In this document: positions 1-16,015 of the stretch, piece after piece
How positions within the stretch are numbered: position 1 is the stretch's first letter
Layout of the letters: each line of letters starts with the position of its first letter
Source of the DNA: Arenicellales bacterium
GTDB taxonomy: Bacteria > Pseudomonadota > Gammaproteobacteria > BMS3Bbin11
Length of the DNA: 64,000 nucleotides
Direction of reading: 5' to 3'
Assembly (NCBI GenBank): GCA_029287915.1
Contig: JARFQE010000125.1
Span: 18,114 to 82,113, forward strand
Notes under the pieces: model-generated
The model's database searches: none
Seen by the model: the letters and a program-made list of their open reading frames with translations, nothing else
What the model was told of the DNA's origin: nothing
Position numbers and translations under genes: made by a program

Positions 1-1118
1 GCGCGGGTATTGTTGTTACCTATCGTGTGTTGGGTACCGCCCATACACCAGATAAAGGTTCCCGGTCGATGATCGGCCATTACCTTGGCGGCGGTATATA
101 TCTGCTCTTCCGGCACACCTGACACACGCTCGACTTCTTCCGGTGTCCATTTCGCGACCTCTTGCCTGACCTCATCGAGACCGTAAACGCGCTGGCGGAT
201 AAATTCCTTGTCTTCCCAGCCATTCTTGAAGATGTGCCATATCATGCCCCAGATAACGGCAACGTCGGATCCGGGACGAATTCTCATAAAGTGGTCTGCA
301 TGTGAAGCCGTACGTGTAAAACGTGGATCAATGACGATAAGCGGTGCGTTGTTTTCTTCCTTCGCTTTGAACACATGCTGCATGGAAACAGGGTGCGCCT
401 CGCTGGGATTACCGCCGATAATCAGGATCGCCTTGCTATTATGTATATCATTATAGGAGTTGGTCATGGCGCCGTAGCCCCATGTATTGGCGACGCCGGC
501 TACCGTGGTTGAATGGCAGATACGTGCCTGGTGATCAACATTATTGGTGCCCCACAATGCGGCAAATTTCCTGAACAGGTAAGCCTGTTCATTGCTATGC
601 TTGGCTGAGCCCAGCCAGTAAACAGAATCAGGACCAGATTGTTCACGGATCTGCAGCAAGCGGTCGCCGACTTCATTGATGGCCTCCTCCCAGGAGATTT
701 TCGTCCACTTGCCATTGACCAGCTTGGTCGGATATTTAAGGCGACGCTCTCCATGGCCATGTTCCCGCACTGAGGCGCCTTTTGCACAGTGAGCGCCAAG
801 ATTGAATGGATGATCAAAGGCCGGCTCCTGCCCGGTCCAGACGCCGTTCTGTACTTCAGCAATAATGCCGCAGCCCACTGAACAGTGTGTACAGATGGTC
901 TTCACCTCGGTGGTGTCACCTTCGGCAGATGTAGCAGCACTGGCTTTAGCCTTTTTCATCATTGTTGGGCTGAGGGTGGTCGCAAGTGCAGCGCCACCGG
1001 CCATCAATCCAGAGTTTCGCAGGAAGCCGCGTCGTGATAGGGCTCGCCCATGCCCTGCCGACACAGTCTGTGATTTATTATTTTGCGAAATTTGATCCGA
1101 TGTTTTTGTCAGTTTCAT
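1..1118 (-). CDS. Molybdopterin oxidoreductase catalytic subunit, formate dehydrogenase alpha-like (N-terminal ~372 aa; rest of gene lies beyond window start)
   Basis: Own minus-strand translation from ATG 1118..1116 (AGGAGA SD upstream): MKLTKTSDQISQNNKSQTVSAGHGRALSRRGFLRNSG... It has a twin-arginine signal (SRRGFLR) and the 4Fe-4S motif CTHCSVGCG. HQARICHSTTVAGV aligns with the FdnG/FdoG active-site segment but has Cys (residue 201) instead of Sec. It is absent from the ORF track because it runs off the window edge; track ORF 500..862 is an off-frame artefact. Confidence 0.85.
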   Translation of the reverse strand, partial: MKLTKTSDQISQNNKSQTVSAGHGRALSRRGFLRNSGLMAGGAALATTLSPTMMKKAKASAATSAEGDTTEVKTICTHCSVGCGIIAEVQNGVWTGQEPAFDHPFNLGAHCAKGASVREHGHGERRLKYPTKLVNGKWTKISWEEAINEVGDRLLQIREQSGPDSVYWLGSAKHSNEQAYLFRKFAALWGTNNVDHQARICHSTTVAGVANTWGYGAMTNSYNDIHNSKAILIIGGNPSEAHPVSMQHVFKAKEENNAPLIVIDPRFTRTASHADHFMRIRPGSDVAVIWGMIWHIFKNGWEDKEFIRQRVYGLDEVRQEVAKWTPEEVERVSGVPEEQIYTAAKVMADHRPGTFIWCMGGTQHTIGNNNTR

Positions 1119-1143
1119 TACCATTCTCCTGTTACCGCGACGT

Positions 1144-1344
1144 TTATTTAGTGGCTGACCTGTAATACGCCAGCACATGCTCCGTCACGCGGTAGCCCGT
1201 TTTTTTATTTTCTTCCTGCTCTGCCTCTGTCAGGGTCAATGCAGAAGCAGTCGATGAAGCAGCAATCGCAGCTCCTGCTCCGGCAATTGCACTTTGCTGC
1301 AGGAACTTCCTGCGGCTGGACTGTTTAGAAGGTTGTTTTTTCAT
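1144..1344 (-). CDS. Small Tat-signal protein of the 'formate dehydrogenase region TAT target' type
   Basis: 66 aa with SRRKFLQQSAIAGAGAAIAASS twin-arginine leader, immediately upstream of the FDH-like alpha gene in the same orientation. Size and position match the small Tat-leader proteins recurrently found beside FDH genes. Confidence 0.7.
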   Translation of the reverse strand: MKKQPSKQSSRRKFLQQSAIAGAGAAIAASSTASALTLTEAEQEENKKTGYRVTEHVLAYYRSATK

Positions 1345-1433
1345 TGCATTTTCTCCTGACAGGAAAGTTTGTCTAGCGTTTAAATCTTCATAATTACTGT
1401 TATTAATGCTTCATTGCTGCGTAATTGAACATG

Positions 1434-2087
1434 TCATACTTCAGCCAGTAAATATCGTTTTTCAATTCCCATGAATGCAGCACCAAAACGCGCTACGGCT
1501 TTGTAGAACACCGCATTATTTGCCACTGACATGTCGGCAAAAAAGCGTTCGAACCAGGTGTCGATATGCTGGACAAAAAAACCACGCTGCAGATCTGTCT
1601 CCGCACCCTCCTGAATCAACATCACCATTACCTCGCATAGTGCTGCAATATGGTCTTCCGGCTCGTGCACATCCGCCGCACGCGTAAAACCCAGACGATC
1701 AAGATCATCGCGTAGATCACCGAGCGGCTTTTCCATCAGGAACCCGGTCAGGTAGAAAGAGCCATATGGCACCAGCTCCCCCCTTCCCAGACCGATAAAC
1801 AGGTCATGATACTCATCGCCGATCGACTGCGGCGAACGCTTTTCTGCCGCCAGTCCAAGCAAGGACATGGCAACTGTCATCTCATCACCGCCACCATCGA
1901 TATCTGCGAAGCAGGCGACGTGGTCAAGTAGTGACTGTTCCGGTATTGATCGCAGCAACGCTGCCAGCATCGCATAGGCTGAAGCCCGGTACTGTTGTTC
2001 CTCTGCCAGTGTTTTTTCATCCCAGTCGACAGCGGCCTGTACAGCTGATGGCTGGTTCTGAAGTTCTTCTGTCGAGGTCTGTGGCAT
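1434..2087 (-). CDS. TorD/DmsD-family redox-enzyme maturation chaperone
   Basis: 217 aa. Acidic helical protein with the TorD-like pattern (...YRASAYAMLAALL...DLDRLGF...EPEDHIAALCEVM...), co-oriented between a Tat-dependent molybdoenzyme and its Fe-S partner. Confidence 0.7.
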   Translation of the reverse strand: MPQTSTEELQNQPSAVQAAVDWDEKTLAEEQQYRASAYAMLAALLRSIPEQSLLDHVACFADIDGGGDEMTVAMSLLGLAAEKRSPQSIGDEYHDLFIGLGRGELVPYGSFYLTGFLMEKPLGDLRDDLDRLGFTRAADVHEPEDHIAALCEVMVMLIQEGAETDLQRGFFVQHIDTWFERFFADMSVANNAVFYKAVARFGAAFMGIEKRYLLAEV

Positions 2088-2229
2088 GTAGGGTTACTCC
2101 TTTGATTTACCTAACTATTGCAATAAGCAGGCCAATGAAAAAATGAAAATAATGACTAAAATGGAACAAAAGTCCTAATTGGGTGACAGCAATTTGGGTT
2201 ACGCTGGTACATAAATGAAACTTCGTGAC

Positions 2230-3885
2230 TTAATGTGTAATCCTTTCGGTGTCGATACCTTTACCCATCATCTCTTCATCCTGCACGATGTCTACCACCC
2301 GACAGTCTTCACACATCTTCAATCGGCGCATAGCGTTATCATCGGTAAACATCCAGTGACCGGCCAGCTTTGCCACCATGTTGTTTATCACAGACTGACT
2401 CGCAAATGGTTTGCCGCAGGCGACACAACAGAACGGTTCTTCCTCATAAAGGGTAACCGGCTGGTTACGGCGCTGATGATCAAACACCAATCGCGGTGTG
2501 ATCCAGATGGCATCCTCCGGACAGGTACGCGTACACAAACCACATTGCAGACAATTTGACTCTATGAATCGAACCTGTGGTACATCCTGTCCACTCTGCA
2601 GAGCATTGCCCGGGCAGGCACTGACACAGGATAAACACAGAGTACAGGATTTCTCATCAATACCGGCGACACCAAAAGGCGCCCCTGCAGTAAGTGCCAC
2701 CATCGGCGCCGGTTGCCCGTTGCTGCCCGCCAGCGCCTGTTGATAGAGGGCGTCTATCGCCATGAACACGGTCTGGCGTTTCCCGCCTGCGCCGGCAAAA
2801 GTGCTCGTTTTAATGGGCGGCATTGCACGCTGTGTGTCACCCTCTTTATGCAGCCACTGCGTCTCGACACGCCGCACAGCATCTGCTGGATAATGCATGG
2901 CAGTCAATATTTCTCTTGCAGTGACCAGCTGCTGGTCAATTTCGTGACTAACGCGGGCAGGAATTGTTCCATCATCGACAAGCAAAACACTGCTGGCACC
3001 ATAGGCAAGCGCTGACAACCAGGTTTCGAGACCAACACTGGCAAGTTCTTCAACTGCAACAGGTAGTAAATTGGCGGCACAGGATTCAGCAGGCACTAAT
3101 CCCCCCGCATGAAATACCAGTACCGGCTGCTGGCCACCTTGTTCAAGGTATACCTTCAATAGACAGCGCAGCTGGGCAAGCAGGTCATCGGTGGTGGGAT
3201 AGACATAACGGATTGCACCGCTTGGACAGACTGTGGCACAGGCACCACCACCCTGGCACAGGTGAGATTCTACTTCTATCATCTCGGCAAGACCTTTGAT
3301 GGCATCAGCTGGACAGGCATCGATACAGCGAGTACAGGCAATAATGCCGGAGCGTCCATGGGCACAGATGGCGGGGTTGTAGTCGAAGTACTTTGGTTTC
3401 TCGAAGGTTCCGGTCAGTGCCGACAACTGTGCAACAGCCGACCGCCGGTCGTCGTCCGCCATGCTACTGTAGACATAGCCCGGCGGTTTGACAGCCATCG
3501 ATAATAATGGCGTCGCTGACAGGTCAAGAACAAGATCTGCCTGCAGGCTTTCAGTGTCGTCAAGCCGCATGGCCTCTTCTTCACCTGCCCCGTGCAGGGT
3601 GATGGTGAAGTTACCGAGGTAACCTTCGACTGTGACCGTTCTGTCACGCCTGCTGGTATATGGTATACCGTCTGCCGCCTTGCCTGCATCGAGGATAAGG
3701 TGTGGTTTCAACGCACCCTGCAGCTCTGCAACAACCTGCTGGGTGCGCTCATCACCAATAATCGCAACGACACCAGCTGACTCATACTTCACCAGGCTGG
3801 TGGGCCGAACTGATAGTGTCGATAGCGCAGCCAGTGCCGCTTCCCGCGCCTGTTTGTTCAAGTCGTCAGCGCTACTTATAGTCAT
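2230..3885 (-). CDS. Multi-cluster 4Fe-4S ferredoxin-domain (polyferredoxin-like) protein
   Basis: At least four CxxCxxCxxxCP ferredoxin motifs (CTRCIDACPADAI, CQGGGACATVCPSGAI, CTLCLSCVSACPGNAL, CLQCGLCTRTCPEDAI) plus extra Cys pairs near the C-terminus. Start placed at MTISS (SD AGGGGA 6 nt upstream); the track ORF extends to 3912. Confidence 0.8.
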   Translation of the reverse strand: MTISSADDLNKQAREAALAALSTLSVRPTSLVKYESAGVVAIIGDERTQQVVAELQGALKPHLILDAGKAADGIPYTSRRDRTVTVEGYLGNFTITLHGAGEEEAMRLDDTESLQADLVLDLSATPLLSMAVKPPGYVYSSMADDDRRSAVAQLSALTGTFEKPKYFDYNPAICAHGRSGIIACTRCIDACPADAIKGLAEMIEVESHLCQGGGACATVCPSGAIRYVYPTTDDLLAQLRCLLKVYLEQGGQQPVLVFHAGGLVPAESCAANLLPVAVEELASVGLETWLSALAYGASSVLLVDDGTIPARVSHEIDQQLVTAREILTAMHYPADAVRRVETQWLHKEGDTQRAMPPIKTSTFAGAGGKRQTVFMAIDALYQQALAGSNGQPAPMVALTAGAPFGVAGIDEKSCTLCLSCVSACPGNALQSGQDVPQVRFIESNCLQCGLCTRTCPEDAIWITPRLVFDHQRRNQPVTLYEEEPFCCVACGKPFASQSVINNMVAKLAGHWMFTDDNAMRRLKMCEDCRVVDIVQDEEMMGKGIDTERITH

Positions 3886-3926
3886 TATTTTCCCCTGCCT
3901 GTTGCTTCGCATTTACCTGCATGGAG

Positions 3927-4562
3927 TCAACTATTCCCCGTCTGCTCGGGTAGCTGCTTATCTGCAGTCATTGAAATGTCATTTTCAATGTCATTTTTGA
4001 CCTCTGTTGCTGCCTCTTTGGCTCGATTAACTCCTTCTATATCACTACCTGCCTCTATTCCATTTACAGGCTCAATTTGGTGCGATGAGCCATCATTGCC
4101 TGCATCTGCCAGCACTTCATTGCTGCCATCGTCCTCCATCGCATCCTTGAGACGCGCCATCTGGTGACGCATCTCTGCAGTGATGACGTTACCGAGCTTC
4201 TGAAAACTGGTGAAATCATCATCATAGTCATCCAGCCCGTCACGCTCATTGAACACCCCGCCCCGAAACAATTTGCGTAGCGCCAGGTTGCGCAATTCGT
4301 CACTGACATTGGGAGACATAAAACCACTGTAGTCTGAATCTTCATCAAGGCTTTCGATTGGCGGCATATCACTATCGCCTGGCAAATCGTCTTTAGCCAT
4401 AACCGCATTTTCCTGCAGCTCGTCTTCAGCAAATGTCTGCGTGACCGAGATATCATTAGCAGCATCATTAACGTCGACTTTTGCCTGCTGCTTGCGGCGC
4501 GACCAGCGTGATAGAAAACCTTCGTCAGACGGTACTTCCAGGTCAGTTTTAGAGTGGCTCAT
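3927..4562 (-). CDS. DUF3306-like acidic protein (FDH-operon associated)
   Basis: 211 aa. N-terminal FLSRWSRRK motif followed by a highly acidic low-complexity body. It overlaps the next gene by 4 nt (operonic). Confidence 0.6.
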   Translation of the reverse strand: MSHSKTDLEVPSDEGFLSRWSRRKQQAKVDVNDAANDISVTQTFAEDELQENAVMAKDDLPGDSDMPPIESLDEDSDYSGFMSPNVSDELRNLALRKLFRGGVFNERDGLDDYDDDFTSFQKLGNVITAEMRHQMARLKDAMEDDGSNEVLADAGNDGSSHQIEPVNGIEAGSDIEGVNRAKEAATEVKNDIENDISMTADKQLPEQTGNS

Positions 4563-5104
4563 GATCGATTCGCCGCAGCTCCGTGACTTTCTTTACGCCA
4601 GTCCCTGCGTTTCCGTTTCACGCGTTTTTCTGGCATGTAATGCTGTAACACAAACTCTTCCGTCCAACGATAAAGCTCTGCCGGCAAGGGCACGGTAAAA
4701 GCCTCGCCCTCACATTCAACATAGGCATTGGCTTCATCGAAACTCAGAGTCACTTTAGAGGGTACAGGTTTCTCGTCGTCGCTAGTGCGGGTGATGACAT
4801 AACAACCGGGTTCGGGCGATACCAGGTTATGGTAATAACTCTCACATTCATCGACATGCAATGTAATAGTGAATCCCGAATACAGTATCTGCTGGGTACC
4901 GGCCTGTTCCTGAATAACACGCGCACGAGTGCGAGTAGCGGTATCGTCAGTGGCACCAGTCTGGGGATCGCCCGTTACACCGGTAGCGCGCCAGACTTCA
5001 TCTACCCATGGGTTGCTCGATTGACGCCGTTCCATGATAACGGCGACAGACATACTTTGCGGCAGGCTCTGTTTTGTATCTTCCAGTATGGACACTGGTA
5101 TCAT
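4559..5104 (-). CDS. DUF3305-like protein (FDH-operon associated)
   Basis: Track ORF 4559..5119 (186 aa). I prefer the MIPVS start at 5104 because AGGA lies 7 nt upstream. It is the first gene of the minus-strand operon and sits directly downstream of a sigma-54 promoter. Confidence 0.55.
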   Translation of the reverse strand: MIPVSILEDTKQSLPQSMSVAVIMERRQSSNPWVDEVWRATGVTGDPQTGATDDTATRTRARVIQEQAGTQQILYSGFTITLHVDECESYYHNLVSPEPGCYVITRTSDDEKPVPSKVTLSFDEANAYVECEGEAFTVPLPAELYRWTEEFVLQHYMPEKRVKRKRRDWRKESHGAAANRS

Positions 5105-5142
5105 TTTGTTCCTGGTCAATTGATCTAGATAAGCTATATAAG

Positions 5143-5158
5143 TGCAAGTTGTGTGCCA
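5143..5158 (-). promoter_or_regulatory. sigma-54 (RpoN) -24/-12 promoter, perfect consensus, driving the DUF3305...FDH operon
   Basis: The plus strand reads TGCAAGTTGTGTGCCA. Its reverse complement is TGGCAC-ACAAC-TTGCA, which is exactly TGGCAC-N5-TTGCA. It lies about 40 nt upstream of the MIPVS start. Confidence 0.6.
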
Positions 5159-5428
5159 GTGAGAAAATAGCCAGCATGGTCAGCTGAATCACTCTGTACA
5201 GGAAGCCTGCTCTGGATGTGATATGTTTTTGAATGGCACAAAATGTCCCATTCATCCTGCCATAAAGGTACAAGTTGTCGCAGTCAGTGTCAGAACAGCA
5301 GAGATAATTTTAGACAAATTTCATATACTTGGTAACATTTCTATCCAAGCTGATGAGATAGACGAACTGGAACATATCTTGCTTTATTACAGGAATTAGA
5401 TGACTTTTTTGCAGGCACAAACCAGTCC

Positions 5429-6442
5429 ATGACTATAACAGAAACAGGCACATGCAATCAGCTGACAGACCGCTTTGGCCGGCACATCAATTACCTGCGC
5501 ATCTCTGTCACAGACCGTTGCGATTTGCGCTGTGTCTACTGCATGTCAGAAGACATGCAGTTTGTGCCACGTGCGCAGCTGCTGACACTTGAAGAAGTAA
5601 GCCGCATAGGACGAATATTCACCGAGCTTGGTGTCCATAAAATACGCATAACCGGCGGCGAACCATTAACACGACGCAATGTCATAGAAGTCTTCAGGCA
5701 ACTTGGCAAACTGGATGGATTAAAAGATCTGACGCTTACCACAAACGGTACACAGCTGGACAGGTTTGCCAGTGAGCTGCGCGATGCCGGTGTTAAGCGC
5801 ATCAACATCTCATTGGATACTCTGCAACAGGAGCGCTTCAGTAAAATTACCCGCACAGGAAGACTACAGCGTACGCTGGCGGGTATCGATGCTGCCCTGG
5901 CAGCTGGTTTTGAAAAGATAAAGATTAACTCTGTAATCCTCAGAAACCGTAATCATGACGAGATTATTGAACTGGTAGAATTTGCTCACTCACGTGGCAT
6001 AGACATTAGTTTTATCGAGGAAATGCCGCTCGGCATTATTGGAGATCATGATCGTGCAGAAGCGTACATCTCCAGCGACGAGATTCTCGATATAATCAAG
6101 CAACGCCATGAACTGCTGCCCACAACAGAGAGCACCGGCGGCCCCTCACGTTACTACAGGCGTACCGATAACAGTGCACGTGTCGGCTTTATCTCTCCGC
6201 ATAGCCATAACTTCTGCGATGACTGCAATCGCGTCAGGCTGACAGCAGAAGGCCGGCTGCTGCTGTGCCTGGGCCAGGAACATTCGGTTGACCTGAGGCG
6301 GGTGGTACGTGCCAACCCGGCGGATGATGCCCCATTGCGGCAGGCGATTATTGATGCCATGACAATCAAACCGCGCGGACATGATTTCGATTTGACCAGC
6401 CAGCCCGTCATCCTGCGACATATGAACAGCACTGGCGGATAA
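5429..6442 (+). CDS. moaA: GTP 3',8-cyclase MoaA (radical SAM, molybdenum cofactor biosynthesis)
   Basis: 337 aa. CDLRCVYCM radical-SAM cluster motif near the N-terminus, C-terminal second-cluster cysteines (CDDCNRVRLTAEG), typical MoaA length. Confidence 0.95.
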   Translation: MTITETGTCNQLTDRFGRHINYLRISVTDRCDLRCVYCMSEDMQFVPRAQLLTLEEVSRIGRIFTELGVHKIRITGGEPLTRRNVIEVFRQLGKLDGLKDLTLTTNGTQLDRFASELRDAGVKRINISLDTLQQERFSKITRTGRLQRTLAGIDAALAAGFEKIKINSVILRNRNHDEIIELVEFAHSRGIDISFIEEMPLGIIGDHDRAEAYISSDEILDIIKQRHELLPTTESTGGPSRYYRRTDNSARVGFISPHSHNFCDDCNRVRLTAEGRLLLCLGQEHSVDLRRVVRANPADDAPLRQAIIDAMTIKPRGHDFDLTSQPVILRHMNSTGG

Positions 6443-6478
6443 GACGCCCGACAATGCAGGCAGCTGAGTAAAAAAATT

Positions 6479-7366
6479 ATGACAAAACAGAGTGAAGCCA
6501 TAGCCAGCAGCCCACTCCCGGAGATGACCAATGCCGGTTTACAGGCCTCCACAGCGATCACCGCAATTGATGAATTTGGCCAGCCACGCGCAGGACATAT
6601 CGCGGCTGAACGGGCACTGACGGTTTACCTCGACAAACAGGAAATTGTTACCCTGATGACGCTCGGCACCCAGCCAGAGCTGCTAGTACTTGGCTGGCTG
6701 CGCAATCAGCGACTGCTGACGGATGTGTCCCAGATCAAGGCCATCCAGGTTGACTGGGAAACCGGTTCTGCCGCCATCACTACGCGCAATGGTATTGCTG
6801 ATCTTGATGTCAAACTTGGGCGCCGCACCGTGACCACGGGCTGCGGGCAGGGAACCGTATTTGGCAGCCTGATGGATGACCTCGAGCACATCAGCCTGCC
6901 GCGTGTTCGCGTGCGCCAGTCGACGCTATACAGACTTCTGGACACCCTTAGCCAGCATAACGAAGTCTATAAACGTGCAGGCGCCGTACATGGCTGTGCA
7001 CTGTGCATGGATCACCGTATGCAGCACTTTGTAGAAGATGTCGGACGTCATAATGCAGTTGATGCAATTGCCGGCCAGATGTGGCTGAACGGCACACAGG
7101 GACATAACAAGCTTTTTTACACCACTGGCCGATTAACCTCCGAGATGGTAATCAAGGTTGCACAAATGGGAATACCCGTGCTGCTTTCCCGTTCGGGTGT
7201 TACCGAGATGGGCCAGGCACTGGCTGAAAAGATTGGCGTCACGCTGATCGCACGCGCAAAGGGTAAGCACTTCCTTGTTTATAACGGTGCCGAGCAGGTC
7301 GAATTTGACGCTATGCCGGAAAAACCTCTCTATCATTCACCGAGCACAGCACCGGGGCGGCGCTAA
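6479..7366 (+). CDS. fdhD: Formate dehydrogenase accessory sulfurtransferase FdhD
   Basis: 295 aa. GRRTVTTGCGQG (active Cys loop), EDVGRHNAVDAI, LSRSGVTEMGQALAEKIGVTLIARAKG; collinear with E. coli FdhD. Confidence 0.9.
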   Translation: MTKQSEAIASSPLPEMTNAGLQASTAITAIDEFGQPRAGHIAAERALTVYLDKQEIVTLMTLGTQPELLVLGWLRNQRLLTDVSQIKAIQVDWETGSAAITTRNGIADLDVKLGRRTVTTGCGQGTVFGSLMDDLEHISLPRVRVRQSTLYRLLDTLSQHNEVYKRAGAVHGCALCMDHRMQHFVEDVGRHNAVDAIAGQMWLNGTQGHNKLFYTTGRLTSEMVIKVAQMGIPVLLSRSGVTEMGQALAEKIGVTLIARAKGKHFLVYNGAEQVEFDAMPEKPLYHSPSTAPGRR

Positions 7367-7369
7367 ATC

Positions 7370-8284
7370 ATGTCTGCGGTCATGCATCCGGAAACAGGCG
7401 TGTTTATGAGCGTCAGGCAGGTAGCGGAATATCTGCACCTGAACGAGAAGAAGATTTATGCCCTGGTGAGCGAGGGTGCCATACCGGCGACCAAGGTCAC
7501 CGGTAAATGGATGTTTCCACGCGAACTCATCGATCGCTGGATGCTTGATTCCGCGCATGGCGGACTGTTAACCGACCGTCTGGTGATTGCCGGCAGCGAC
7601 GACCCACTACTGTATCGCATCGTAACTGAATTTGCCCGTGATACCGGTGCACATGCACTGATCAGCTACACTGCTACCGGGACTCGTCTTGGTCTTGATC
7701 TTTTGCAGGCACAGCGCGCTGATGCGTGTGGTATCCACTGGGGACCGGCAAATGAGAGTCACACGCGCCACCCTGCTCTGCTGCGCCAGTATTCACAGCA
7801 TCACAACTGGGTACTGATCAGGGCCTTTCGTCGTGAACAGGGTCTTATCGTCAGTCCACCTGTGCTTAATTACACGCAGCAGATAGAAGACTTGTTCGAT
7901 CGCCAGTTTCGCTGGGCACTGCGCCAGAACGGTGCCGGCGCGCAACGCTACCTGCTGGAAATAATTGGCAAACATGGCCTTAATGCCGCTTCCTTGAAAT
8001 CGGAAGTGACTGCTCTCTCGGAACGCGAAGCAGCCGCGGCCATTGCGATGGACCTTGCAGATGTGGCCCCGGGTGCCCGTTCGGTGGCAACCGAATTTGG
8101 ACTTGGTTTCATCTCCCTGGGCTGGGAGTCATTTGACTTTGTGCTACCACGTCCGATCTGGTTCCGACGCCTGTTCCAGGATCTGATCACCCGGCTGCAC
8201 AACGGACAGAGCCATGAACTGGCCGATGAACTCACCGGTTATGATTTATCGGGCTGCGGGCAACTGCTGTGGGGCGATGACTGA
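7370..8284 (+). CDS. Transcriptional regulator: excisionase-type HTH fused to a periplasmic-binding-protein-like (ModA/TupA-like) domain; TunR-like architecture
   Basis: MSVRQVAEYLHLNEKKIYALVSEGAIPATKVTGKWMF is an excisionase/MerR-like HTH. It is followed by a ~250-aa domain with PBP type-2 character. The gene lies between fdhD and the tup/sigma-54 region. Confidence 0.55.
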   Translation: MSAVMHPETGVFMSVRQVAEYLHLNEKKIYALVSEGAIPATKVTGKWMFPRELIDRWMLDSAHGGLLTDRLVIAGSDDPLLYRIVTEFARDTGAHALISYTATGTRLGLDLLQAQRADACGIHWGPANESHTRHPALLRQYSQHHNWVLIRAFRREQGLIVSPPVLNYTQQIEDLFDRQFRWALRQNGAGAQRYLLEIIGKHGLNAASLKSEVTALSEREAAAAIAMDLADVAPGARSVATEFGLGFISLGWESFDFVLPRPIWFRRLFQDLITRLHNGQSHELADELTGYDLSGCGQLLWGDD

Positions 8285-8576
8285 TTGCCAGTGGCGCCTA
8301 AATTTTAATGATGCATAGCCCATTCACCCATCATCAAACTACCGATTGCTTCTCTTGCTACAGTCCCTGTAAGAATCAAGCATTGAGTAACTTAACATTT
8401 CAGCAATGACCATCTGAGACTGTCTGCTTAGGCATTATCAGAAATTGTACATATACTCGTTACCGGAGACGCCTTTGTTGACCATATTTTCTGCAATTCG
8501 ACAAGTATGCAATGGCTCAGCGATTCCATGCCGCTTGGTCACCTAGCAAGCAGTAATACTGCTCATCACAGATCGC

Positions 8577-9998
8577 TTACGCCGATTCGCTTGTACCCCA
8601 GGCCTGTACTTTACGTTCCAGCGTCTTGCGCGACACACCAAGCAACCTGGCAGCCGCTGACTTGTTGCCACCCTCCCTGTCCAGGACTTTTAGAATATGA
8701 CGCTTCTCGACCGCTTCCAGCAGCATTGAATCAGCATCATCTTCTGTCACTGTTTGCTGCCCGTTGGCAGAAATACCACGCAGGCACTGTTCGGGAGTCT
8801 GATCCAGCAGCAGACAACGCTCAATCACATTTTTTAATTCACGGACGTTGCCCGGCCAGTTGTAACTGCGTAACTGAGCCAGTTCCCGATCCCTTATCTG
8901 ATGCGGTGGCACACCCATATCGGCAGATAGTTTCTGCATGAAAAACTCTACCAGGTCCGGGATATCATCAGGGCGTTCACGCAAGGTAGGCATGCGCACA
9001 GTAACAACATTCAGCCGATAGAACAGGTCCTCACGAAAATTACCTTTCTCGACCTCGTCTCCCAGCGCTCTGTTGGTCGCGGCAATTACGCGAACATCAA
9101 CCGGTATCTCACGGTTGGATCCTACCGGCCGGATTGACTGCTGTTCCAGAACCCGTAGTAGATGAACCTGCATGGAAAGCGGCATTTCACCAATTTCATC
9201 GAGAAACAGCGTACCATTACTGGCATAGTTGAATAATCCTTCGCGCCCCTGGTGAGCTCCAGTGAATGCTCCCTTGACGTGACCAAACAATTCACTTTCC
9301 AATAACTCGGCCGACATCGCGCCGCAATTGATCGGCACGAAGCTGCCGCTGCGTCCACTCCATGCATGGATCGCCCTCGCTGCCAGCTCCTTGCCGGTCC
9401 CTGATTCTCCTTCAATAAGCACTGTCGTTGGCATGGGTGCGATGCGCTTAATCACTTCACAGACATTTTTCATAGTCTGGCACTGTCCAACGATACCGCT
9501 GTCATAAAAATGATCAACCTGGCGACGCAGGACGACATTTTCCCTCTGTATACGCTGACTCTGCATGCAGCGCGCAACGGCTGCCATGATCTGATCCGTG
9601 CGAAATGGCTTCTGGATCAGATCCACAGCTCCGGCGCGCAATGCATCGATAGCGGTATCCACTGTGGCCTGGGCCGTGATAAAGATAAGCGAGGTACTGC
9701 TGCCCAGTCCGAGTAGCTTTGTTACCCATGCCAGTCCGGATTGGCCAGGCAAGTGCAGATCAGCAATGATAAGGTCGAAATTACAGCGCTCGGCAAGTGC
9801 CTGCGCTGTATTCACGTCAGCAGCCAGTTCAACCAAGCCGAAGTGTTTCTCCATACCATTGCACAGAAAGTTCCGGGTGTCCGCGTCTGCATCGATAATC
9901 AGCACAGAATTTTGTTTCAGCGACAATCCCTGTGAGTCGCCACTTAACGTTGTCTGCGTAACGCTAAATTCATCATTCTTGAAAGCTTGTTCGGCCAT
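8577..9998 (-). CDS. sigma-54-dependent response regulator (NtrC family enhancer-binding protein: REC-AAA+-HTH)
   Basis: 473 aa. Receiver domain (VLIIDADADTRNF...DLIIADLHLPGQSG), Walker A GESGTGKE, GAFTGA sigma-54 contact motif, ESELFGH, C-terminal Fis-type HTH. No histidine kinase is adjacent. Confidence 0.9.
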   Translation of the reverse strand: MAEQAFKNDEFSVTQTTLSGDSQGLSLKQNSVLIIDADADTRNFLCNGMEKHFGLVELAADVNTAQALAERCNFDLIIADLHLPGQSGLAWVTKLLGLGSSTSLIFITAQATVDTAIDALRAGAVDLIQKPFRTDQIMAAVARCMQSQRIQRENVVLRRQVDHFYDSGIVGQCQTMKNVCEVIKRIAPMPTTVLIEGESGTGKELAARAIHAWSGRSGSFVPINCGAMSAELLESELFGHVKGAFTGAHQGREGLFNYASNGTLFLDEIGEMPLSMQVHLLRVLEQQSIRPVGSNREIPVDVRVIAATNRALGDEVEKGNFREDLFYRLNVVTVRMPTLRERPDDIPDLVEFFMQKLSADMGVPPHQIRDRELAQLRSYNWPGNVRELKNVIERCLLLDQTPEQCLRGISANGQQTVTEDDADSMLLEAVEKRHILKVLDREGGNKSAAARLLGVSRKTLERKVQAWGTSESA

Positions 9999-10253
9999 TA
10001 ATCATATCCTTATTGGTCTCTTTTTATAGTTTTAATGGGAAAATTATCGTTATTTATCGTTAATAGACAACCCGCAACTTAACACATACGCGGCATTAAA
10101 CAATATAGTGTGACTAAATGTACCAATGGTTGACATGTTTTTGCGACATTTTTTCCCACACCATCAATGACTGTATAGCGAAACTCGGCCACCATTTTTT
10201 GTTGTCCCTGTGAATTGCTGTGGTCGTCGAAATGTCACATAGAAATCGGCTTG

Positions 10254-10270
10254 CTGGCATTATTCTTGCT
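10254..10270 (+). promoter_or_regulatory. Putative sigma-54 -24/-12 promoter upstream of tupA
   Basis: CTGGCAT-tattc-TTGCT has GG and GC at the canonical 12-nt spacing. It is 64 nt upstream of the tupA start and divergent from the NtrC-type activator gene. Confidence 0.5.
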
Positions 10271-10333
10271 GCTATGAATTAAAGCTGAGCAAAAATGATT
10301 CACCACACACAATAAACATCAAAGGAACCCAGG

Positions 10334-11203
10334 ATGCGATTCACCCGTCTGTTAAAAGTCTGCCTGCTGTTTATCAGTCTAAAACTCTCATTTGCTGCCA
10401 TCGCTGCAGAAGCTGGCAACGACCATGTATTAAAACTCGCCACCACAACAAGCACCGAAAACTCGGGACTGCTGCGTCACCTGTTGCCGGTATTTGAACG
10501 CGATACGGGTTACAAGGTACATGTCATCGCGGTAGGTACCGGCAAGGCACTGCGCATGGGGCGTGACGGCGATGTCGATGTCGTTCTGGTACACGCCCCC
10601 GCGGCTGAACAGAAATTCGTCGATGACGGGCATGGCGTGAAGCGCGTCGGTGTCATGTACAATGACTTTGTTATAGTCGGTCCGGTAGATGACCCGGCAG
10701 CCGCCGGCAACAGCAGCAGCGGCAATGAAGCGCTGAGCAGAATTGCAAAAAAAAAGGCAGTTTTTATCTCAAGGGGTGACGATTCGGGGACCAATAAAAA
10801 AGAACTGTCATTATGGAGAGAGGCCGGCATCAGACCACAGGAACCATGGTATCGAGAAGCCGGACAGGGTATGGGCAAGGTTCTGCAAATGGCAGGAGAA
10901 CTTTCAGCCTATACCCTCACTGACCGTGGGACCTGGCTGGCATTCATGAATAAATCACCATTACGTATTGTTTACCAGGACGACCCAGTGCTGTTCAACC
11001 CCTACGGTATCATCGCGGTCAACCCGGCACGTTATCCGGATATAAACTACACCGGCGCCCAGGCACTGATAAAGTGGATCACTTCACCGGCTGGCCAACT
11101 TTTAATAGGCAACTACACCGTTGCGGATTCGCTGCTATTCACCCCATCAGCCGATACGGGTCACCTGGCCAGTGAATATTCTGCTGCCGGCAAGACTGAA
11201 TAA
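10334..11203 (+). CDS. tupA: Tungstate ABC transporter substrate-binding protein TupA
   Basis: 289 aa, signal peptide, TTTSTENSGLL anion-binding motif characteristic of TupA rather than ModA. Confidence 0.8.
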   Translation: MRFTRLLKVCLLFISLKLSFAAIAAEAGNDHVLKLATTTSTENSGLLRHLLPVFERDTGYKVHVIAVGTGKALRMGRDGDVDVVLVHAPAAEQKFVDDGHGVKRVGVMYNDFVIVGPVDDPAAAGNSSSGNEALSRIAKKKAVFISRGDDSGTNKKELSLWREAGIRPQEPWYREAGQGMGKVLQMAGELSAYTLTDRGTWLAFMNKSPLRIVYQDDPVLFNPYGIIAVNPARYPDINYTGAQALIKWITSPAGQLLIGNYTVADSLLFTPSADTGHLASEYSAAGKTE

Positions 11204-11226
11204 AGCGGCAATTATCGGCACTCACT

Positions 11227-11928
11227 ATGTCTTCACTGAGCGGTGCAACCCTTGATGCTATAAGCCTTCTGGCAGGAGGCGATGCCCAGCTATGGGGAAT
11301 CATCGGTATTTCATTTCGCGTATCCACAACAGCAATTTTGATTGCCATCCCGCCATCGCTTTTGATTGCCTTCTTGCTTGCCTATGGCCGTTTTCCCGGA
11401 CGACGGCTGCTAATTTCGGTGTTCAGCACTCTGCTCTCGCTACCTGCAGTGGTGGTCGGACTGACGCTATACCTGGTATTGTCCAGGCATGGCCCGCTGG
11501 GTGACTGGAGACTTCTATTCTCCCAGACTGCCATGGTGATGGGTCAAATTGTGCTCTGTGTACCGATCCTGGTTGCCATGGGACATTCAGCTTTGCAGGC
11601 CGCTGACCGACGTGCATGGGAGACGGCCAGAACACTCGGTGCCGGCCCACTGCGCGCTGTACTGACTGTGATGCATGAAGTTCGCTTCGGACTGTTTGCC
11701 GCTCTACTGGCCGCTTATGGTCGCATCATTGCCGAGGTAGGCGCCTCGATGATGCTGGGTGGCAATATCCTTAACTACACCCGCAACATCCCAACCGCGA
11801 TTGCACTGGAAACCAGCAAGGGTGAATTCGCTCAGGGCATCGCACTCGGCATTGTCCTGCTGGTACTGGCGTTCATCCTCAATGGCTTGTTGCATTACCT
11901 GCAGGGCAAGGGACGTTTTGCTGTATGA
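11227..11928 (+). CDS. tupB: Tungstate ABC transporter permease TupB
   Basis: 233 aa multi-TM permease with ABC EAA-like loop; overlaps tupC start. Confidence 0.8.
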   Translation: MSSLSGATLDAISLLAGGDAQLWGIIGISFRVSTTAILIAIPPSLLIAFLLAYGRFPGRRLLISVFSTLLSLPAVVVGLTLYLVLSRHGPLGDWRLLFSQTAMVMGQIVLCVPILVAMGHSALQAADRRAWETARTLGAGPLRAVLTVMHEVRFGLFAALLAAYGRIIAEVGASMMLGGNILNYTRNIPTAIALETSKGEFAQGIALGIVLLVLAFILNGLLHYLQGKGRFAV

Positions 11929-12650
11929 GTTCGATGCTCAACCTCCAGTTCAATAATCTGTGCAAACGTTATCGTCGGCGTACTATTCTCGTTAATCTCG
12001 ATATCACCCTGCGGGATGGAGAATGCACACTGCTTTGCGGCTCCAATGGTGCCGGCAAAACAACCCTGTTGAGGATTATGGCCGGGCTCGAGAAACCGGA
12101 TCTGGGAACCATTGATTTCGGCTTCGGGCAAATGAAATGGCGGCGCTGCAAAAAGACTCTGCAGGAGAAGATCATGTACCTGCATCAACAGCCCTATATG
12201 TTCGATACAAGTGTCAGGAAGAACCTCGCTTATGCGCTGCCATCTGGTCTGAGCAATGCAGAGTGCAGTCAGCGTATCGATGAGGCATTGGAGTGGGCTG
12301 ACCTCAGGCGCCTGGCAACGGCCCCGGCAACAAACCTGTCAGGCGGTGAAGCGCAACGGGTTGCGCTGGCTCGGGCATGGCTGCGCATCCCACTGGTATT
12401 GCTGCTGGATGAGCCAATGGCCAACATGGACCAGGAATCCCGCCTGCGCACACACAATCTGCTGCGCCAACTAAAGGATCAGGGCATGGCGATCATCATC
12501 ACAAGCCATGACACAATGCAGTTCCAGTCACTATCGGACAGGCAATTAATACTCAAGGATGGCAAAATATCCATAGAACTCTCAACTAACCAGGCAGAGA
12601 ATGTAACGGCATTTCCGCTCGCTCAGACTTCCCTGCACGATACTGCATGA
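11925..12650 (+). CDS. tupC: Tungstate ABC transporter ATP-binding protein TupC
   Basis: 241 aa. Walker A GSNGAGKTT, signature LSGGEAQRVALARA, Walker B LLLDEP. It has no C-terminal TOBE domain, so it is TupC-type rather than ModC-type. Confidence 0.8.
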   Translation: MSSMLNLQFNNLCKRYRRRTILVNLDITLRDGECTLLCGSNGAGKTTLLRIMAGLEKPDLGTIDFGFGQMKWRRCKKTLQEKIMYLHQQPYMFDTSVRKNLAYALPSGLSNAECSQRIDEALEWADLRRLATAPATNLSGGEAQRVALARAWLRIPLVLLLDEPMANMDQESRLRTHNLLRQLKDQGMAIIITSHDTMQFQSLSDRQLILKDGKISIELSTNQAENVTAFPLAQTSLHDTA

Positions 12651-13252
12651 TAACGCCTGAAAAAAACAACATTACCGCCGTCATCCTGGCGGGTGGCCGT
12701 GGCAGTCGCCTCGGTGGCCAGGACAAGGGTATGCTGGAGCTCAATGGTAGACCATTGATTGAGCATATCCTTGATGCAGTCAAACCACAGGTTAAGACCG
12801 TCATTATCAATGCGAATCGCAACCATCAATTCTACGCTGGTTATGGTTACCCGGTGGTCAGCGATGACATGACAAATTTCCAGGGCCCATTGGCTGGTTT
12901 TGCCGCCGCGCTCTCCGCATGCAATACTAGTTTCGTCATGACCCTTCCCTGTGATGGCCCATCTGTACCGGTAGATCTTGCAGCTCGATTGTGCAAGGCA
13001 ATTATTGATAATGAAGCCGAATTAGCTGTTGCTCACGATGGTAAACGTTTGCAGCCAGTATACGCGTTAATACCACGCTCTTTACTTGCCAGCCTGCTGA
13101 CATTTCTCAATGCAGGTGATCGTAAGATAGACCTCTGGTATTCACAACATAAAGTAGCACTGGCAGATTTTTCCGATGTTATGAATAGCTTTTTCAATAT
13201 CAACACCGAAAAGGATCGTCGCCTGGCCACCAAACAAGAAATATCAGCATGA
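12647..13252 (+). CDS. mobA: Molybdenum cofactor guanylyltransferase MobA
   Basis: 201 aa, AVILAGGRGSRLGGQDKGML...LPCDGP; overlapping start/stop with neighbours. Confidence 0.9.
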   Translation: MITPEKNNITAVILAGGRGSRLGGQDKGMLELNGRPLIEHILDAVKPQVKTVIINANRNHQFYAGYGYPVVSDDMTNFQGPLAGFAAALSACNTSFVMTLPCDGPSVPVDLAARLCKAIIDNEAELAVAHDGKRLQPVYALIPRSLLASLLTFLNAGDRKIDLWYSQHKVALADFSDVMNSFFNINTEKDRRLATKQEISA

Positions 13253-13812
13253 GTAAGATATCAGCACCCATAGTGGGATTTTGCGCCTGGAGTGGCACAG
13301 GCAAGACGACTTTGCTAGCCCAGCTAATACCAATACTGGTCGCGCAGGGTCTAAGGATCGCTGTCGTCAAACATGCTCATCATGATTTTGATATCGATCA
13401 TCCCGGCAAGGACAGCTTTGAACTACGCAAAGCCGGTGCCAGCCAGATGCTGATTACATCGCGCAAACGTATGGCGGTAATTACCGAATTCGAACAACAT
13501 CGTGCAGAACCTTCACTCTATGATGCGCTTGAACGGATCAATATGCAGGAGTCTGATCTTGTCCTGGTAGAAGGATTCAAACACGAACCAATTAAAAAAA
13601 TTGAACTACACCGTGCAGAACTTAAAAAACCATTAATGTTTCCTGATGACCCAAATATTATTGCAATCGCCAGCGACCAGGCAATCATTGAAAACAGGAG
13701 TACGCTGCCACAACTGAACCTCAATAAACCGCAGCAAATAGCACAATTTATTGTAGACAATATCCTTGCAACAGAATCCTCTTTGACGTCATCAGGAGTC
13801 TGTCTACCGTGA
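13249..13812 (+). CDS. mobB: Molybdopterin-guanine dinucleotide biosynthesis adaptor MobB
   Basis: 187 aa, P-loop GFCAWSGTGKTTLL, VKHAHH motif. Confidence 0.9.
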   Translation: MSKISAPIVGFCAWSGTGKTTLLAQLIPILVAQGLRIAVVKHAHHDFDIDHPGKDSFELRKAGASQMLITSRKRMAVITEFEQHRAEPSLYDALERINMQESDLVLVEGFKHEPIKKIELHRAELKKPLMFPDDPNIIAIASDQAIIENRSTLPQLNLNKPQQIAQFIVDNILATESSLTSSGVCLP

Positions 13813-15077
13813 GCAATGTTATTAGATCCGTATCCTGTTGCGATGACTTGGCGGAAGCTGACACACTAACTGTTGATGAAGCACGCCGGCAAATTATTGA
13901 TAAAATTAATCCCATTACCAGTAGTGAAAAACTCAGCTTGCGAAATGCTCTCAGCAGAATACTGGCAGAGGATATCATTTCACCATTGGATGTACCGGGC
14001 CATACCAACTCTGCGATGGATGGTTATGCAGTGTCAGGTAATGACCTGCCACAGTCTGGTGAGCAGATTTACCAGGTTATTGGCAAGTCCCTAGCCGGTG
14101 CTCCATTTAACGGTAATTGCAATGCAGGCCAGTGTGTCCGCATCATGACCGGAGCAGTGATGCCGGATGGAACCGATACCGTCATCATGCAGGAACATGT
14201 AGCAGCAACTGCAACAGATACAGTGCAAATTGGTGACGGCCACCGCCCCGGGCAGAATGTTCGCCAGGCAGGTGAAGATATTTCAGCAGGTGGAACTGTA
14301 TTACAGACATCACACAAACTGACACCTGCTGACCTCGGTATCCTGTCGTCTTTAGGGATAGGCGAAGTCAAGGTGCGCCGGCGTCCACGTGTAGCATTCT
14401 TCTCCACCGGAGATGAGCTGCGTTCGATCGGTGAGTCGCTTGCGGAAGGCGATGTGTATGACAGCAATCGATATAGCCTGTATGGAATGCTTAAACGGCT
14501 GGACGTTGAAATACTGGACATGGGCGTCGTCAAAGATGACATCGATGAATTGAGAAATGCTTTTTCAAACGCTGCCTCAATGGCTGACGTAGTGATCACT
14601 TCCGGTGGTGTATCAGTCGGAGAGGCCGACTATATAAAACCCATTCTTGAACAGACAGGTGAAATAAATTTCTGGAAAATCGCCATGAAACCTGGGCGGC
14701 CACTGACCCATGGCCGGATAGGCAACAGCCTGTTCTTCGGCCTGCCCGGAAATCCAGTAGCAGTAATGGTCACCTTTTACCAGTTTGTTCAACCTGCACT
14801 GAATTATCTGGCTAGCGGCACAGAAAGCCTGCCATGGACCATGCTGGCTACCAGCAGCAATAATATTAACAAGCGCCCCGGCCGTTACGAGTTCCAGCGT
14901 GGAATACTCGAACAGGGTGCTGGAGGTCAGCTGACAGTCAGAAAAACCGGTCAGCAGGGCTCAGGTGTTCTGACCTCGATGAGTCGTGCCAACTGCTTCA
15001 TTTTATTACCAGAAAATTGTGATGGAGTCTCGGCTGGTGATGAGGTTCGTGTACAGCTGTTTGACACCTTTATCTGA
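13809..15077 (+). CDS. moeA: Molybdopterin molybdotransferase MoeA
   Basis: 422 aa, SGGVSVGEADY and GLPGNPVA motifs, MoeA N/C domain layout. Confidence 0.9.
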   Translation: MSNVIRSVSCCDDLAEADTLTVDEARRQIIDKINPITSSEKLSLRNALSRILAEDIISPLDVPGHTNSAMDGYAVSGNDLPQSGEQIYQVIGKSLAGAPFNGNCNAGQCVRIMTGAVMPDGTDTVIMQEHVAATATDTVQIGDGHRPGQNVRQAGEDISAGGTVLQTSHKLTPADLGILSSLGIGEVKVRRRPRVAFFSTGDELRSIGESLAEGDVYDSNRYSLYGMLKRLDVEILDMGVVKDDIDELRNAFSNAASMADVVITSGGVSVGEADYIKPILEQTGEINFWKIAMKPGRPLTHGRIGNSLFFGLPGNPVAVMVTFYQFVQPALNYLASGTESLPWTMLATSSNNINKRPGRYEFQRGILEQGAGGQLTVRKTGQQGSGVLTSMSRANCFILLPENCDGVSAGDEVRVQLFDTFI

Positions 15078-15436
15078 TTTAACTGAATACCAGCAATTCC
15101 GTTTCCCTGTATGACAAGCTATATGTTAGTTATAAATTGCGACTGCATGTAAGCTCTGTGCAAAATAATAAAATCCGCCAGCAGTATCAATCATACAGGC
15201 CGGGCAATTATCAGCTCACTCCATTGACCAGTGTGTTCTCTGATGCGTATCTGACAGACATCATGAGAGCGCTGAAAGATATACCTATCTGATATCTAAC
15301 CTCTAATTTGTATGGGTTAGCATTGAATGGCTTTATAAGGACAGTCTATAGCAGTAAAATACAGGTATATTCGTTGTATCATGACTGCGAATAGCCACCC
15401 GGCAGAAGCCTCTACCCATGAAACCGGTACAGCATT

Positions 15437-15727
15437 ATGAGCAAGAAAGACATCAGCAAGGAAGAAGAAATTCTACAACTGGTAAAAAACACCCTGACAA
15501 CCATCGCCAGGGATACCTATACCCCACCCGAACTATCTCATCCACTGTCGAGTGATACCATAAACCAGATAAGAAACTGTTTTTCAGTAATCACCCAACG
15601 TCAGCAGGAACTGGCACGCGCACGAGGCGAAGAATTCAACGATCGTCCGCATTTTATCGATGAAACTAACGATAGCTTTGTTATCTCCCTTGATGACTTC
15701 CGTGGGCCGGCCAAAAAGGAGGACTGA
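15437..15727 (+). CDS. Hypothetical small protein (96 aa)
   Basis: ORF with an SD-like region upstream, 2 nt from the next ORF. No recognisable motif. Confidence 0.4.
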   Translation: MSKKDISKEEEILQLVKNTLTTIARDTYTPPELSHPLSSDTINQIRNCFSVITQRQQELARARGEEFNDRPHFIDETNDSFVISLDDFRGPAKKED

Positions 15728-15729
15728 TC

Positions 15730-15969
15730 ATGCCATATTATATATATCGCATATCGGAATCTGCCGGTGCTGTTGTCAAAAATCTGGAATTACTGGCAAC
15801 TTTCGACAAATATCGTGATGCCAAGCAACTCGCTAAAAAAACCCGCAGTGAGATGGGCACCAGCGAGGCAGCACAAATTAAAGTCATGTTTGCAGAAAAT
15901 GAATTGGCTGCTGAAGAACAATTGCTCGAAAAGCGTGAAAAGCCTGTCGTCATGGAATGGGAGAAATAA
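15730..15969 (+). CDS. Hypothetical small protein (79 aa)
   Basis: Tightly coupled to the previous ORF; charged helical protein; no recognisable motif. Confidence 0.4.
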   Translation: MPYYIYRISESAGAVVKNLELLATFDKYRDAKQLAKKTRSEMGTSEAAQIKVMFAENELAAEEQLLEKREKPVVMEWEK

Positions 15970-16015
15970 CTGCTTGCCTTAAGGCGTCAGGCCTGAAGAA
16001 GACTAAACGTTCGTC

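Follow-up and report, generated by a model that had tools for sequence, protein, structure and literature searches.

A probable sigma-54 promoter ahead of DUF3305, and a candidate formate dehydrogenase regulon around it, in an uncultured gammaproteobacterium

The stretch of DNA analysed here (64 kb, called the window below) comes from an uncultured gammaproteobacterium whose nearest genomes are Arenicellales MAGs. Ahead of its DUF3305 gene lies a 16-bp element that reads like a sigma-54 promoter. This raises the question of whether the element works as one and, if it does, which protein activates it and which genes respond along with it. The genes around the element, which include those for a formate dehydrogenase (FDH), are the following.

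1..1118, minus strand: 5' part of the gene for a Tat-exported FDH alpha subunit of the Cys type, which continues beyond the window.
1144..1344, minus strand: small 'formate dehydrogenase region TAT target' gene (TIGR02811, 58.5 bits against a cut-off of 48.45).
1434..2087, minus strand: TorD/DmsD-type chaperone gene (Pfam and NCBIfam).
2230..3912, minus strand: gene for a 560-aa poly-[4Fe-4S] protein (poly-ferredoxin; Pfam).
3927..4562, minus strand: DUF3306 gene (PF11748, E = 2.7e-26).
4559..5104, minus strand: DUF3305 gene (PF11749, E = 7e-37), the first gene from the flagged promoter.
5429..6442 and 6479..7366, plus strand: moaA and fdhD, divergent from DUF3305 (Pfam).
7370..8284, plus strand: gene for a regulator with HTH_17 and PBP_like domains, the last gene of the moaA-fdhD operon (Pfam).
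8577..9998, minus strand: gene for an NtrC-type enhancer-binding response regulator (Pfam domains, GAFTGA, synteny).
10334..15077, plus strand: tupA-tupB-tupC (tungstate ABC transporter), mobA, mobB, and moeA (Pfam, synteny).

The FDH alpha subunit has a Tat signal and carries a Cys (HQARICHSTTVA) where many periplasmic FDHs carry selenocysteine. The Cys at the active site and the presence of tupABC nearby suggest a tungsten- or molybdenum-dependent Cys-type enzyme. The best NCBIfam match of the tupA product is the TupA equivalog, at 244 bits and below the cut-off of 400. The sole NCBIfam model touched by DUF3305 is 'MobA, DUF3305 domain-containing' (NF011058); DUF3305 therefore occurs fused to a Mo/W-cofactor guanylyltransferase, with a hint that it functions in maturing the cofactor and not in the membrane. 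In the literature searched, DUF3305 is mentioned only in a survey, in which DUF3305 and DUF3306 were noted to lie often ahead of dmsD-fdhGHI operons (PMC4464133).

The element itself, called P_DUF3305 here, is identified by its match to the sigma-54 consensus and by its conservation in relatives.

5143..5158, minus strand: sigma-54 -24/-12 element of P_DUF3305, TGGCACACAACTTGCA.

The first-pass annotation had called it an exact RpoN -24/-12 consensus, and the reverse complement of 5143..5158 does match all 11 specified positions of TGGCAC-N5-TTGCA, with the GG and GC dinucleotides 10 bases apart as in sigma-54 promoters of the form TGGCAC-N5-TTGCW. This is the only exact match in the window. 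Shuffled versions of the window held a mean of 0.05 exact matches, and at least one match occurred in 5 of 100 shuffles; by itself, the motif count is borderline evidence and only suggestive. The element is intergenic, on the sense strand of DUF3305, and inside the 324-nt spacer between the divergent moaA and DUF3305 genes. Its last base is separated by 38 nt from the DUF3305 ATG at 5104, and an AGGA at 5113..5110 lies 5–6 nt ahead of this ATG, in agreement with the earlier placement of the element about 40 nt upstream of a start with AGGA. This start, which gives a protein of 181 aa, was picked identically by independent gene callers on 23 metagenome contigs that encode a DUF3305 protein identical to that of the window. 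If the C of the GC dinucleotide is taken as -12, transcription is predicted to start near 5132 with a 5' UTR of approximately 28 nt. A search for sigma-70 promoters in the moaA-DUF3305 spacer gave two weak matches compared with 1.1 expected, which is chance level, and no Rfam family, including the Moco riboswitch, was found in 1..16000 at E <= 1. Public gene calls place an ORF of 55–58 aa on the plus strand of this spacer (approximately 5223..5399), overlapping the enhancer and the moaA promoter described below. We rejected it as coding, and consider it probably spurious, on the grounds that the region is rich in indels and conserved only in four regulatory islands.

To put the element in a wider context, 35 DUF3305 proteins were aligned and 80 genomic loci (1.2 Mb) were fetched from Arenicellales, Candidatus Thiodiazotropha, Sedimenticola, Cocleimonas, Thiothrix, and Chromatiales. 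Sigma-54 sites were scored with a matrix that is approximate, having been made from the published consensus rather than curated, and with a threshold of 9.5. Upstream of DUF3305, 72 of 78 related loci have a site at or above this threshold within 160 nt, as compared with 3.7% of random 160-nt windows from the same loci. These sites have the consensus TGGYAYRYAAMTTGC, stand mostly 30–50 nt from the DUF3305 start codon, and span several gammaproteobacterial orders. In the nearest genomes (L001 and L002) the element is identical at 16 of 16 positions, including the spacer, and the flanks have diverged. When the whole moaA-DUF3305 spacer was aligned for eight loci, the window and seven relatives of its clade, mean column identity was 49%, and the invariant columns grouped into four islands that correspond to two promoters and two palindromes. 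Because the site is kept so far above background while its flanks diverge, this comparison of related sequences reveals a clear phylogenetic footprint at 5143..5158 and rules out a chance match. The element is very probably a working sigma-54 promoter.

The footprint has a taxonomic limit. No sigma-54 site scoring at least 9.5 was found upstream of DUF3305 in replicons of Variovorax, Bradyrhizobium, and Salipiger, which are alpha- or betaproteobacteria with DUF3305 proteins at 28–33% identity. Because these three examples are without the site, sigma-54 control is, judged from these replicons, not general for DUF3305/DUF3306 operons; it goes with the gammaproteobacterial type of cluster and not with the DUF3305 family. 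The cluster on the Salipiger plasmid NZ_CP014598.1 (L086), a distant alphaproteobacterial example, encodes a Cache-domain protein and a sigma-54 activator and has a single palindrome-like site (ATGGACATTTCGTCCCTG), the three features lying at 2189..4132, 8830..8847, and 17573..18402 of L086; there is no recognisable -24/-12 element upstream of DUF3305 in this cluster.

By the same matrix scan, the window has four conserved sigma-54 elements, of which the flagged site is one. The other three were not in the first-pass annotation.

2119..2134, minus strand: internal element P_torD, TGGCCTGCTTATTGCA, 31 nt before the TorD-like start.
5368..5383, plus strand: divergent element P_moaA, TGGAACATATCTTGCT, 45 nt before the moaA ATG.
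10255..10270, plus strand: element P_tupA, TGGCATTATTCTTGCT, 63 nt before the tupA ATG.

A site of the P_torD type occurs between the 4Fe-4S gene and the TorD-like gene in 62 of 65 loci (background 3.7%), and P_torD is predicted to drive the TorD-like, TAT-target, and FdhA genes. The P_tupA site was seen in 15 of 18 loci, every one of them scoring at least 13. P_moaA is found in 21 of 54 loci overall and reads TGGAACRYATCTTGCT in all eight loci of the window's clade. Ahead of DUF3306, the Fe-S gene, fdhA, fdhD, tupB, and the activator gene, the rate of sigma-54 sites is 0–5%, with one site in 72 loci before the Fe-S gene and none in 27 loci ahead of the activator gene. The FDH structural genes have a sigma-54 promoter of their own and therefore do not depend on the flagged promoter alone. 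This modifies the earlier proposal that the whole FDH accessory operon is under sigma-54 and enhancer control. The conservation of promoter, enhancer, and synteny supports such control, but the prevalence of P_torD argues against its being exerted from this one promoter.

An NtrC-type activator is expected to act from paired palindromic upstream activating sequences (UAS) 80–150 bp from its promoter, and a scan of the DNA upstream of DUF3305, which had been suggested as a check on the element, turned up two 17-bp palindromes. A second pair lies upstream of P_tupA.

Approximately 5233..5250, minus strand: proximal UAS palindrome, TGGGACATTTTGTGCCA, score 22.4, the best in the window; a conserved island.
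5266..5283, plus strand: distal and weaker UAS palindrome, AGGTACAAGTTGTCGCAG, score 10.6; a conserved island.
10142..10159, TGCGACATTTTTTCCCAC, and 10108..10125 (minus strand), TGGTACATTTAGTCACAC: UAS pair upstream of P_tupA, scores 17.2 and 13.1.

The palindrome has the consensus TGGGACA-N3-TGTCCCA, and its two copies in the spacer are two of the four islands. Measured from the P_DUF3305 start, the proximal copy is centred at about -110 and the distal copy, 33 bp away, at about -143; measured from the P_moaA start, the two centres are at about -152 and -120, respectively. The two weak sigma-70-like matches sit upstream of this enhancer. In most loci the palindromes are spaced 32–34 bp apart and the proximal copy is approximately 92 nt upstream of the -24 element. 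The tupA pair has a similar layout, with copies 34 bp apart and centres at about -131 and -164. Trained only on DUF3305 upstream regions, the UAS matrix gave scores of 13 or more for 14 of the 15 independent regions upstream of tupA, compared with 2.6% of random windows. Across the 1.2 Mb, 100 of 109 strong UAS sites are followed within 260 nt by a sigma-54-type site that points away from them. A site resembling that for IHF between enhancer and promoter was found in none of the loci of the window's clade and in 8 of 74 loci overall.

Because moaA is divergent from DUF3305 and the UAS pair is at workable distances from both promoters, one pair probably serves both. The tupA pair is also 110–160 nt upstream of the divergent activator gene, and therefore autoregulation of the activator through this pair is possible. 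As to which protein binds the palindromes, the most likely candidate is the syntenic NtrC-type activator (8577..9998); we favour it because the palindromes track sigma-54 promoters, one pair adjoins the activator gene, and the spacer has no other island.

P_torD is arranged differently.

2143..2178, minus strand: conserved block directly upstream of P_torD, aligned with the -24 element without indels in 58 loci.

This T-rich block of 36 nt consists of TTGGTnATTTnnnTCCcTTTTtGTCATTTtTTTCC, then 8 nt, then TGG, and keeps a fixed register in the 58 loci. It reads as two degenerate direct repeats that resemble UAS half-sites, 19 nt apart. Canonical palindromes occur within 220 nt of P_torD in 12 of 58 loci. 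The activator might bind this block at point-blank range, or the block might serve as an operator for the HTH_17 and PBP_like regulator.

The first-pass annotation had reported an NtrC-type enhancer-binding protein nearby, and the domain analysis agrees. The product of 8577..9998 has Response_reg (32–141), Sigma54_activat (169–334), and HTH_8 (427–467) domains and is the only GAFTGA protein in the window. Orthologues with 54–76% identity over more than half the length of the window's activator, well beyond what generic AAA+ relatedness would give, were found in 31 loci; they are placed alike, between tupA and the HTH_17 and PBP_like gene. Upstream sequence extended to 9 kb or more in 48 loci, of which 31 have the activator or its kinase, and the other 17 have no orthologous activator or kinase within 10 kb. 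No named NCBIfam equivalog reaches its cut-off on the activator (AtoC, the best, 383 bits compared with 714; NtrC, 371 compared with 558.6; FhlA, 273 compared with 830), and because of this the protein is best classed, on these model scores, as an unnamed branch of the NtrC family. No RpoN-box protein (rpoN) is encoded in the 64-kb window.

In 20 of the 31 loci with the activator, the next gene codes for a sensor kinase that combines a periplasmic sCache_3_3 domain with HAMP, HisKA, and HATPase_c. No homologue of this Cache kinase is encoded anywhere in the 64-kb window. The receiver of the window's activator retains the phospho-acceptor Asp, the Thr, and the Lys, and its acidic pocket reads DADAD, compared with DDEPG in orthologues linked to a kinase. 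Other kinase-less orthologues are likewise degenerate, and two of them (L038 and L060) have lost the phospho-Asp. We infer that the partner kinase was lost in the window's lineage. The HTH_17 (excisionase-type) and PBP_like regulator is conserved in 61 loci and is a candidate oxyanion-responsive co-regulator. We found no solved structures related to this protein or to DUF3305, and the literature searched on tungstate-responsive sigma-54 regulators held nothing relevant.

Together, these data make it likely, in our judgement, that 5143..5158 is a functional sigma-54 promoter for DUF3305, DUF3306, and the 4Fe-4S gene, and that it is one of four in a gammaproteobacterial regulon under an NtrC-type activator acting on a palindrome pair. 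We propose that this regulon couples tungstate uptake by TupABC with molybdopterin or tungstopterin synthesis and insertion, for which the proposed set is moaA, mobAB, moeA, fdhD, and the TorD-like chaperone, and with a periplasmic Cys-type FDH. In this model RNA polymerase with sigma-54 would form a closed complex on the -24/-12 element. Dimers of the activator would bind the two 17-bp palindromes, whose centres near -110 and -143 are separated by three helical turns, and would then oligomerise, loop the DNA, and open the promoter by ATP hydrolysis through the GAFTGA loop. The divergent moaA promoter would use the same palindrome pair as DUF3305, and tupA would use the second pair. In most relatives the activator would take its signal from the adjacent Cache-domain histidine kinase, the gene for which is missing from the window.

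The assignment of the palindromes to this activator has a competitor within the cluster. They might instead be operators of the HTH_17 and PBP_like regulator, which is likely to bind an oxyanion, with the activator working from other sites or from solution at a promoter that is nonetheless real. Within the cluster, that regulator is conserved as widely as the activator or more so, the palindromes lie in the control region of its own operon, and at P_torD the related repeats in fixed register abut the -24 element, an odd spot for a classical enhancer. However, a pair of 7-N3-7 palindromes at about -110 and -143, three turns apart, is the classical NtrC geometry known from glnAp2. Strong palindromes are also almost exclusively upstream of sigma-54 promoters, and the spacer offers no other conserved island where the activator could bind. 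We give the operator explanation a small chance of being correct.

A related idea about the same protein concerns all four promoters. With the kinase gone and the phospho-acceptor pocket of the activator partly lost, the HTH_17 and PBP_like protein may have taken over the promoters as an architectural co-regulator that senses tungstate or molybdate. We regard this as speculative, with a small chance of being right. If it is true, the protein would bind the repeats next to the P_torD -24 element, as well as related sites in other places, and the genes for the enzyme and its cofactor would fire only when the metal is available. This would amount to a metal-cofactor checkpoint on sigma-54 promoters.

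It is also conceivable that P_DUF3305 is real and is activated by an enhancer-binding protein encoded elsewhere, the neighbouring activator controlling only tupABC or something else. The long-flank loci in which neither activator nor kinase was found fit this idea, as does the lack of a kinase next to the window's activator. It is harder to reconcile with the presence of like palindromes upstream of both DUF3305 and tupA, the latter pair adjoining the activator gene, and with the strong synteny wherever flanks extend far enough, and we consider it improbable.

The preference for a working promoter would be misplaced if the element bound the sigma-54 holoenzyme and yet stayed silent in most or all conditions, with DUF3305 expressed from another promoter. 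Sites of RpoN binding that have no effect on expression are known from ChIP studies (PMC3439928), and the spacer does hold the two weak sigma-70-like matches. These are at chance level and upstream of the enhancer, however, and the apparent Vibrio cholerae equivalent of the unit, VC1518-17, which encodes hypothetical proteins just upstream of the FDH genes and has the site TGGCGCAATTATTGC, changes 7.5-/10.9-fold with RpoN (PMC3439928). A silent site is thus very unlikely. That 5143..5158 is a functionless chance match to the consensus, as the 5 shuffles in 100 with an exact match might allow, has a negligible probability given a same-place site in 72 of 78 loci from several gammaproteobacterial orders with diverged flanks.

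With the sigma-54 promoter under the NtrC-type activator as the preferred reading, the analysis yields a testable regulatory model for a widespread and almost unstudied cluster that marine sulfur-oxidising and symbiotic Gammaproteobacteria carry. FDH would be co-induced with tungstate uptake, cofactor synthesis, and maturation factors through four sigma-54 promoters and one dedicated two-component activator with a defined 17-bp site, and DUF3305 and DUF3306 would be placed firmly in an FDH maturation regulon. New here are the proposed enhancer motif, the protein assigned to it as activator, the probable use of a single enhancer in both directions, and the disappearance of the kinase from this lineage. 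What is known about sigma-54 itself is unchanged; 5143..5158 appears to be an ordinary, well-behaved sigma-54 promoter in a neat regulon.

As a comparison, the NtrC enhancer of glnAp2 consists of two 7-N3-7 palindromes, approximately 32 bp apart and centred near -110 and -140. The system in the window resembles it in having an activator with receiver, AAA+, and HTH_8 domains and two 17-bp 7-N3-7 palindromes with alike spacing and positions. By contrast, the half-site is TGCACCA for NtrC and TGGGACA here, the target genes differ, the window has no adjacent kinase, and its activator falls below the NtrC equivalog cut-off. Classical sigma-54 and enhancer control of an FDH is that of the Escherichia coli fdhF and hyc promoters by FhlA. 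FhlA is without a receiver and detects formate by means of GAF domains at its N terminus, whereas the activator in the window is a response regulator, and the FhlA model matches only its AAA+ and HTH part. The enzymes differ as well, E. coli FDH-H being cytoplasmic and the FDH of the window periplasmic and Tat-exported.

In Geobacter sulfurreducens the fdnG operon (GSU0777-0781) has an RpoN promoter confirmed by primer extension (PMC2725144). It is like the window in combining a periplasmic-type FDH with an RpoN promoter, but it belongs to a different phylum and its gene table is without DUF3305/DUF3306, tup, and cofactor genes.

The closest parallel is in Vibrio, where the cluster (VC1510-VC1527; VP1510-VP1515) has a layout like that of the window and, in V. 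cholerae, four RpoN units, VC1518/17 corresponding to DUF3305/DUF3306 by gene order only. RpoN ChIP-seq and RNA-seq in V. cholerae showed four units that are bound and positively controlled (PMC3439928 Table 2). In addition to VC1518-17, these are the formate dehydrogenase unit VC1516-10 (22- to 64-fold, site TGGAACGCTATTTGC), VC1519 fdhD, and an ABC transporter encoded together with genes of molybdopterin synthesis (PMC3439928). One of the response regulators listed for V. cholerae is VC1522 (PMC4441509), and by locus number it falls between the RpoN units. In an rpoN mutant of V. parahaemolyticus, VP1510-VP1515 were down 8- to 27-fold (log2 fold change -3.17 to -4.75); these genes encode an Fe-S protein, an FDH chaperone, a hypothetical protein, and FDH alpha, beta, and gamma (PMC9817140). 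The order of Fe-S protein, FDH-specific chaperone, hypothetical protein, and FDH alpha is that of the window. The single difference visible in the layout concerns the internal promoter, which is before the Fe-S gene (VC1516) in Vibrio and before the TorD-like gene in the window. The first-pass annotation had described this regulation as not commonly noted. From the Vibrio comparison, sigma-54 control looks to have been measured already for what is seemingly the same cluster, though not under the DUF3305 name, and the regulation looks real but not new. The Vibrio RpoN papers assign no activator or enhancer (PMC3439928, PMC9817140), and for what they left unassigned the window supplies a candidate of each kind.
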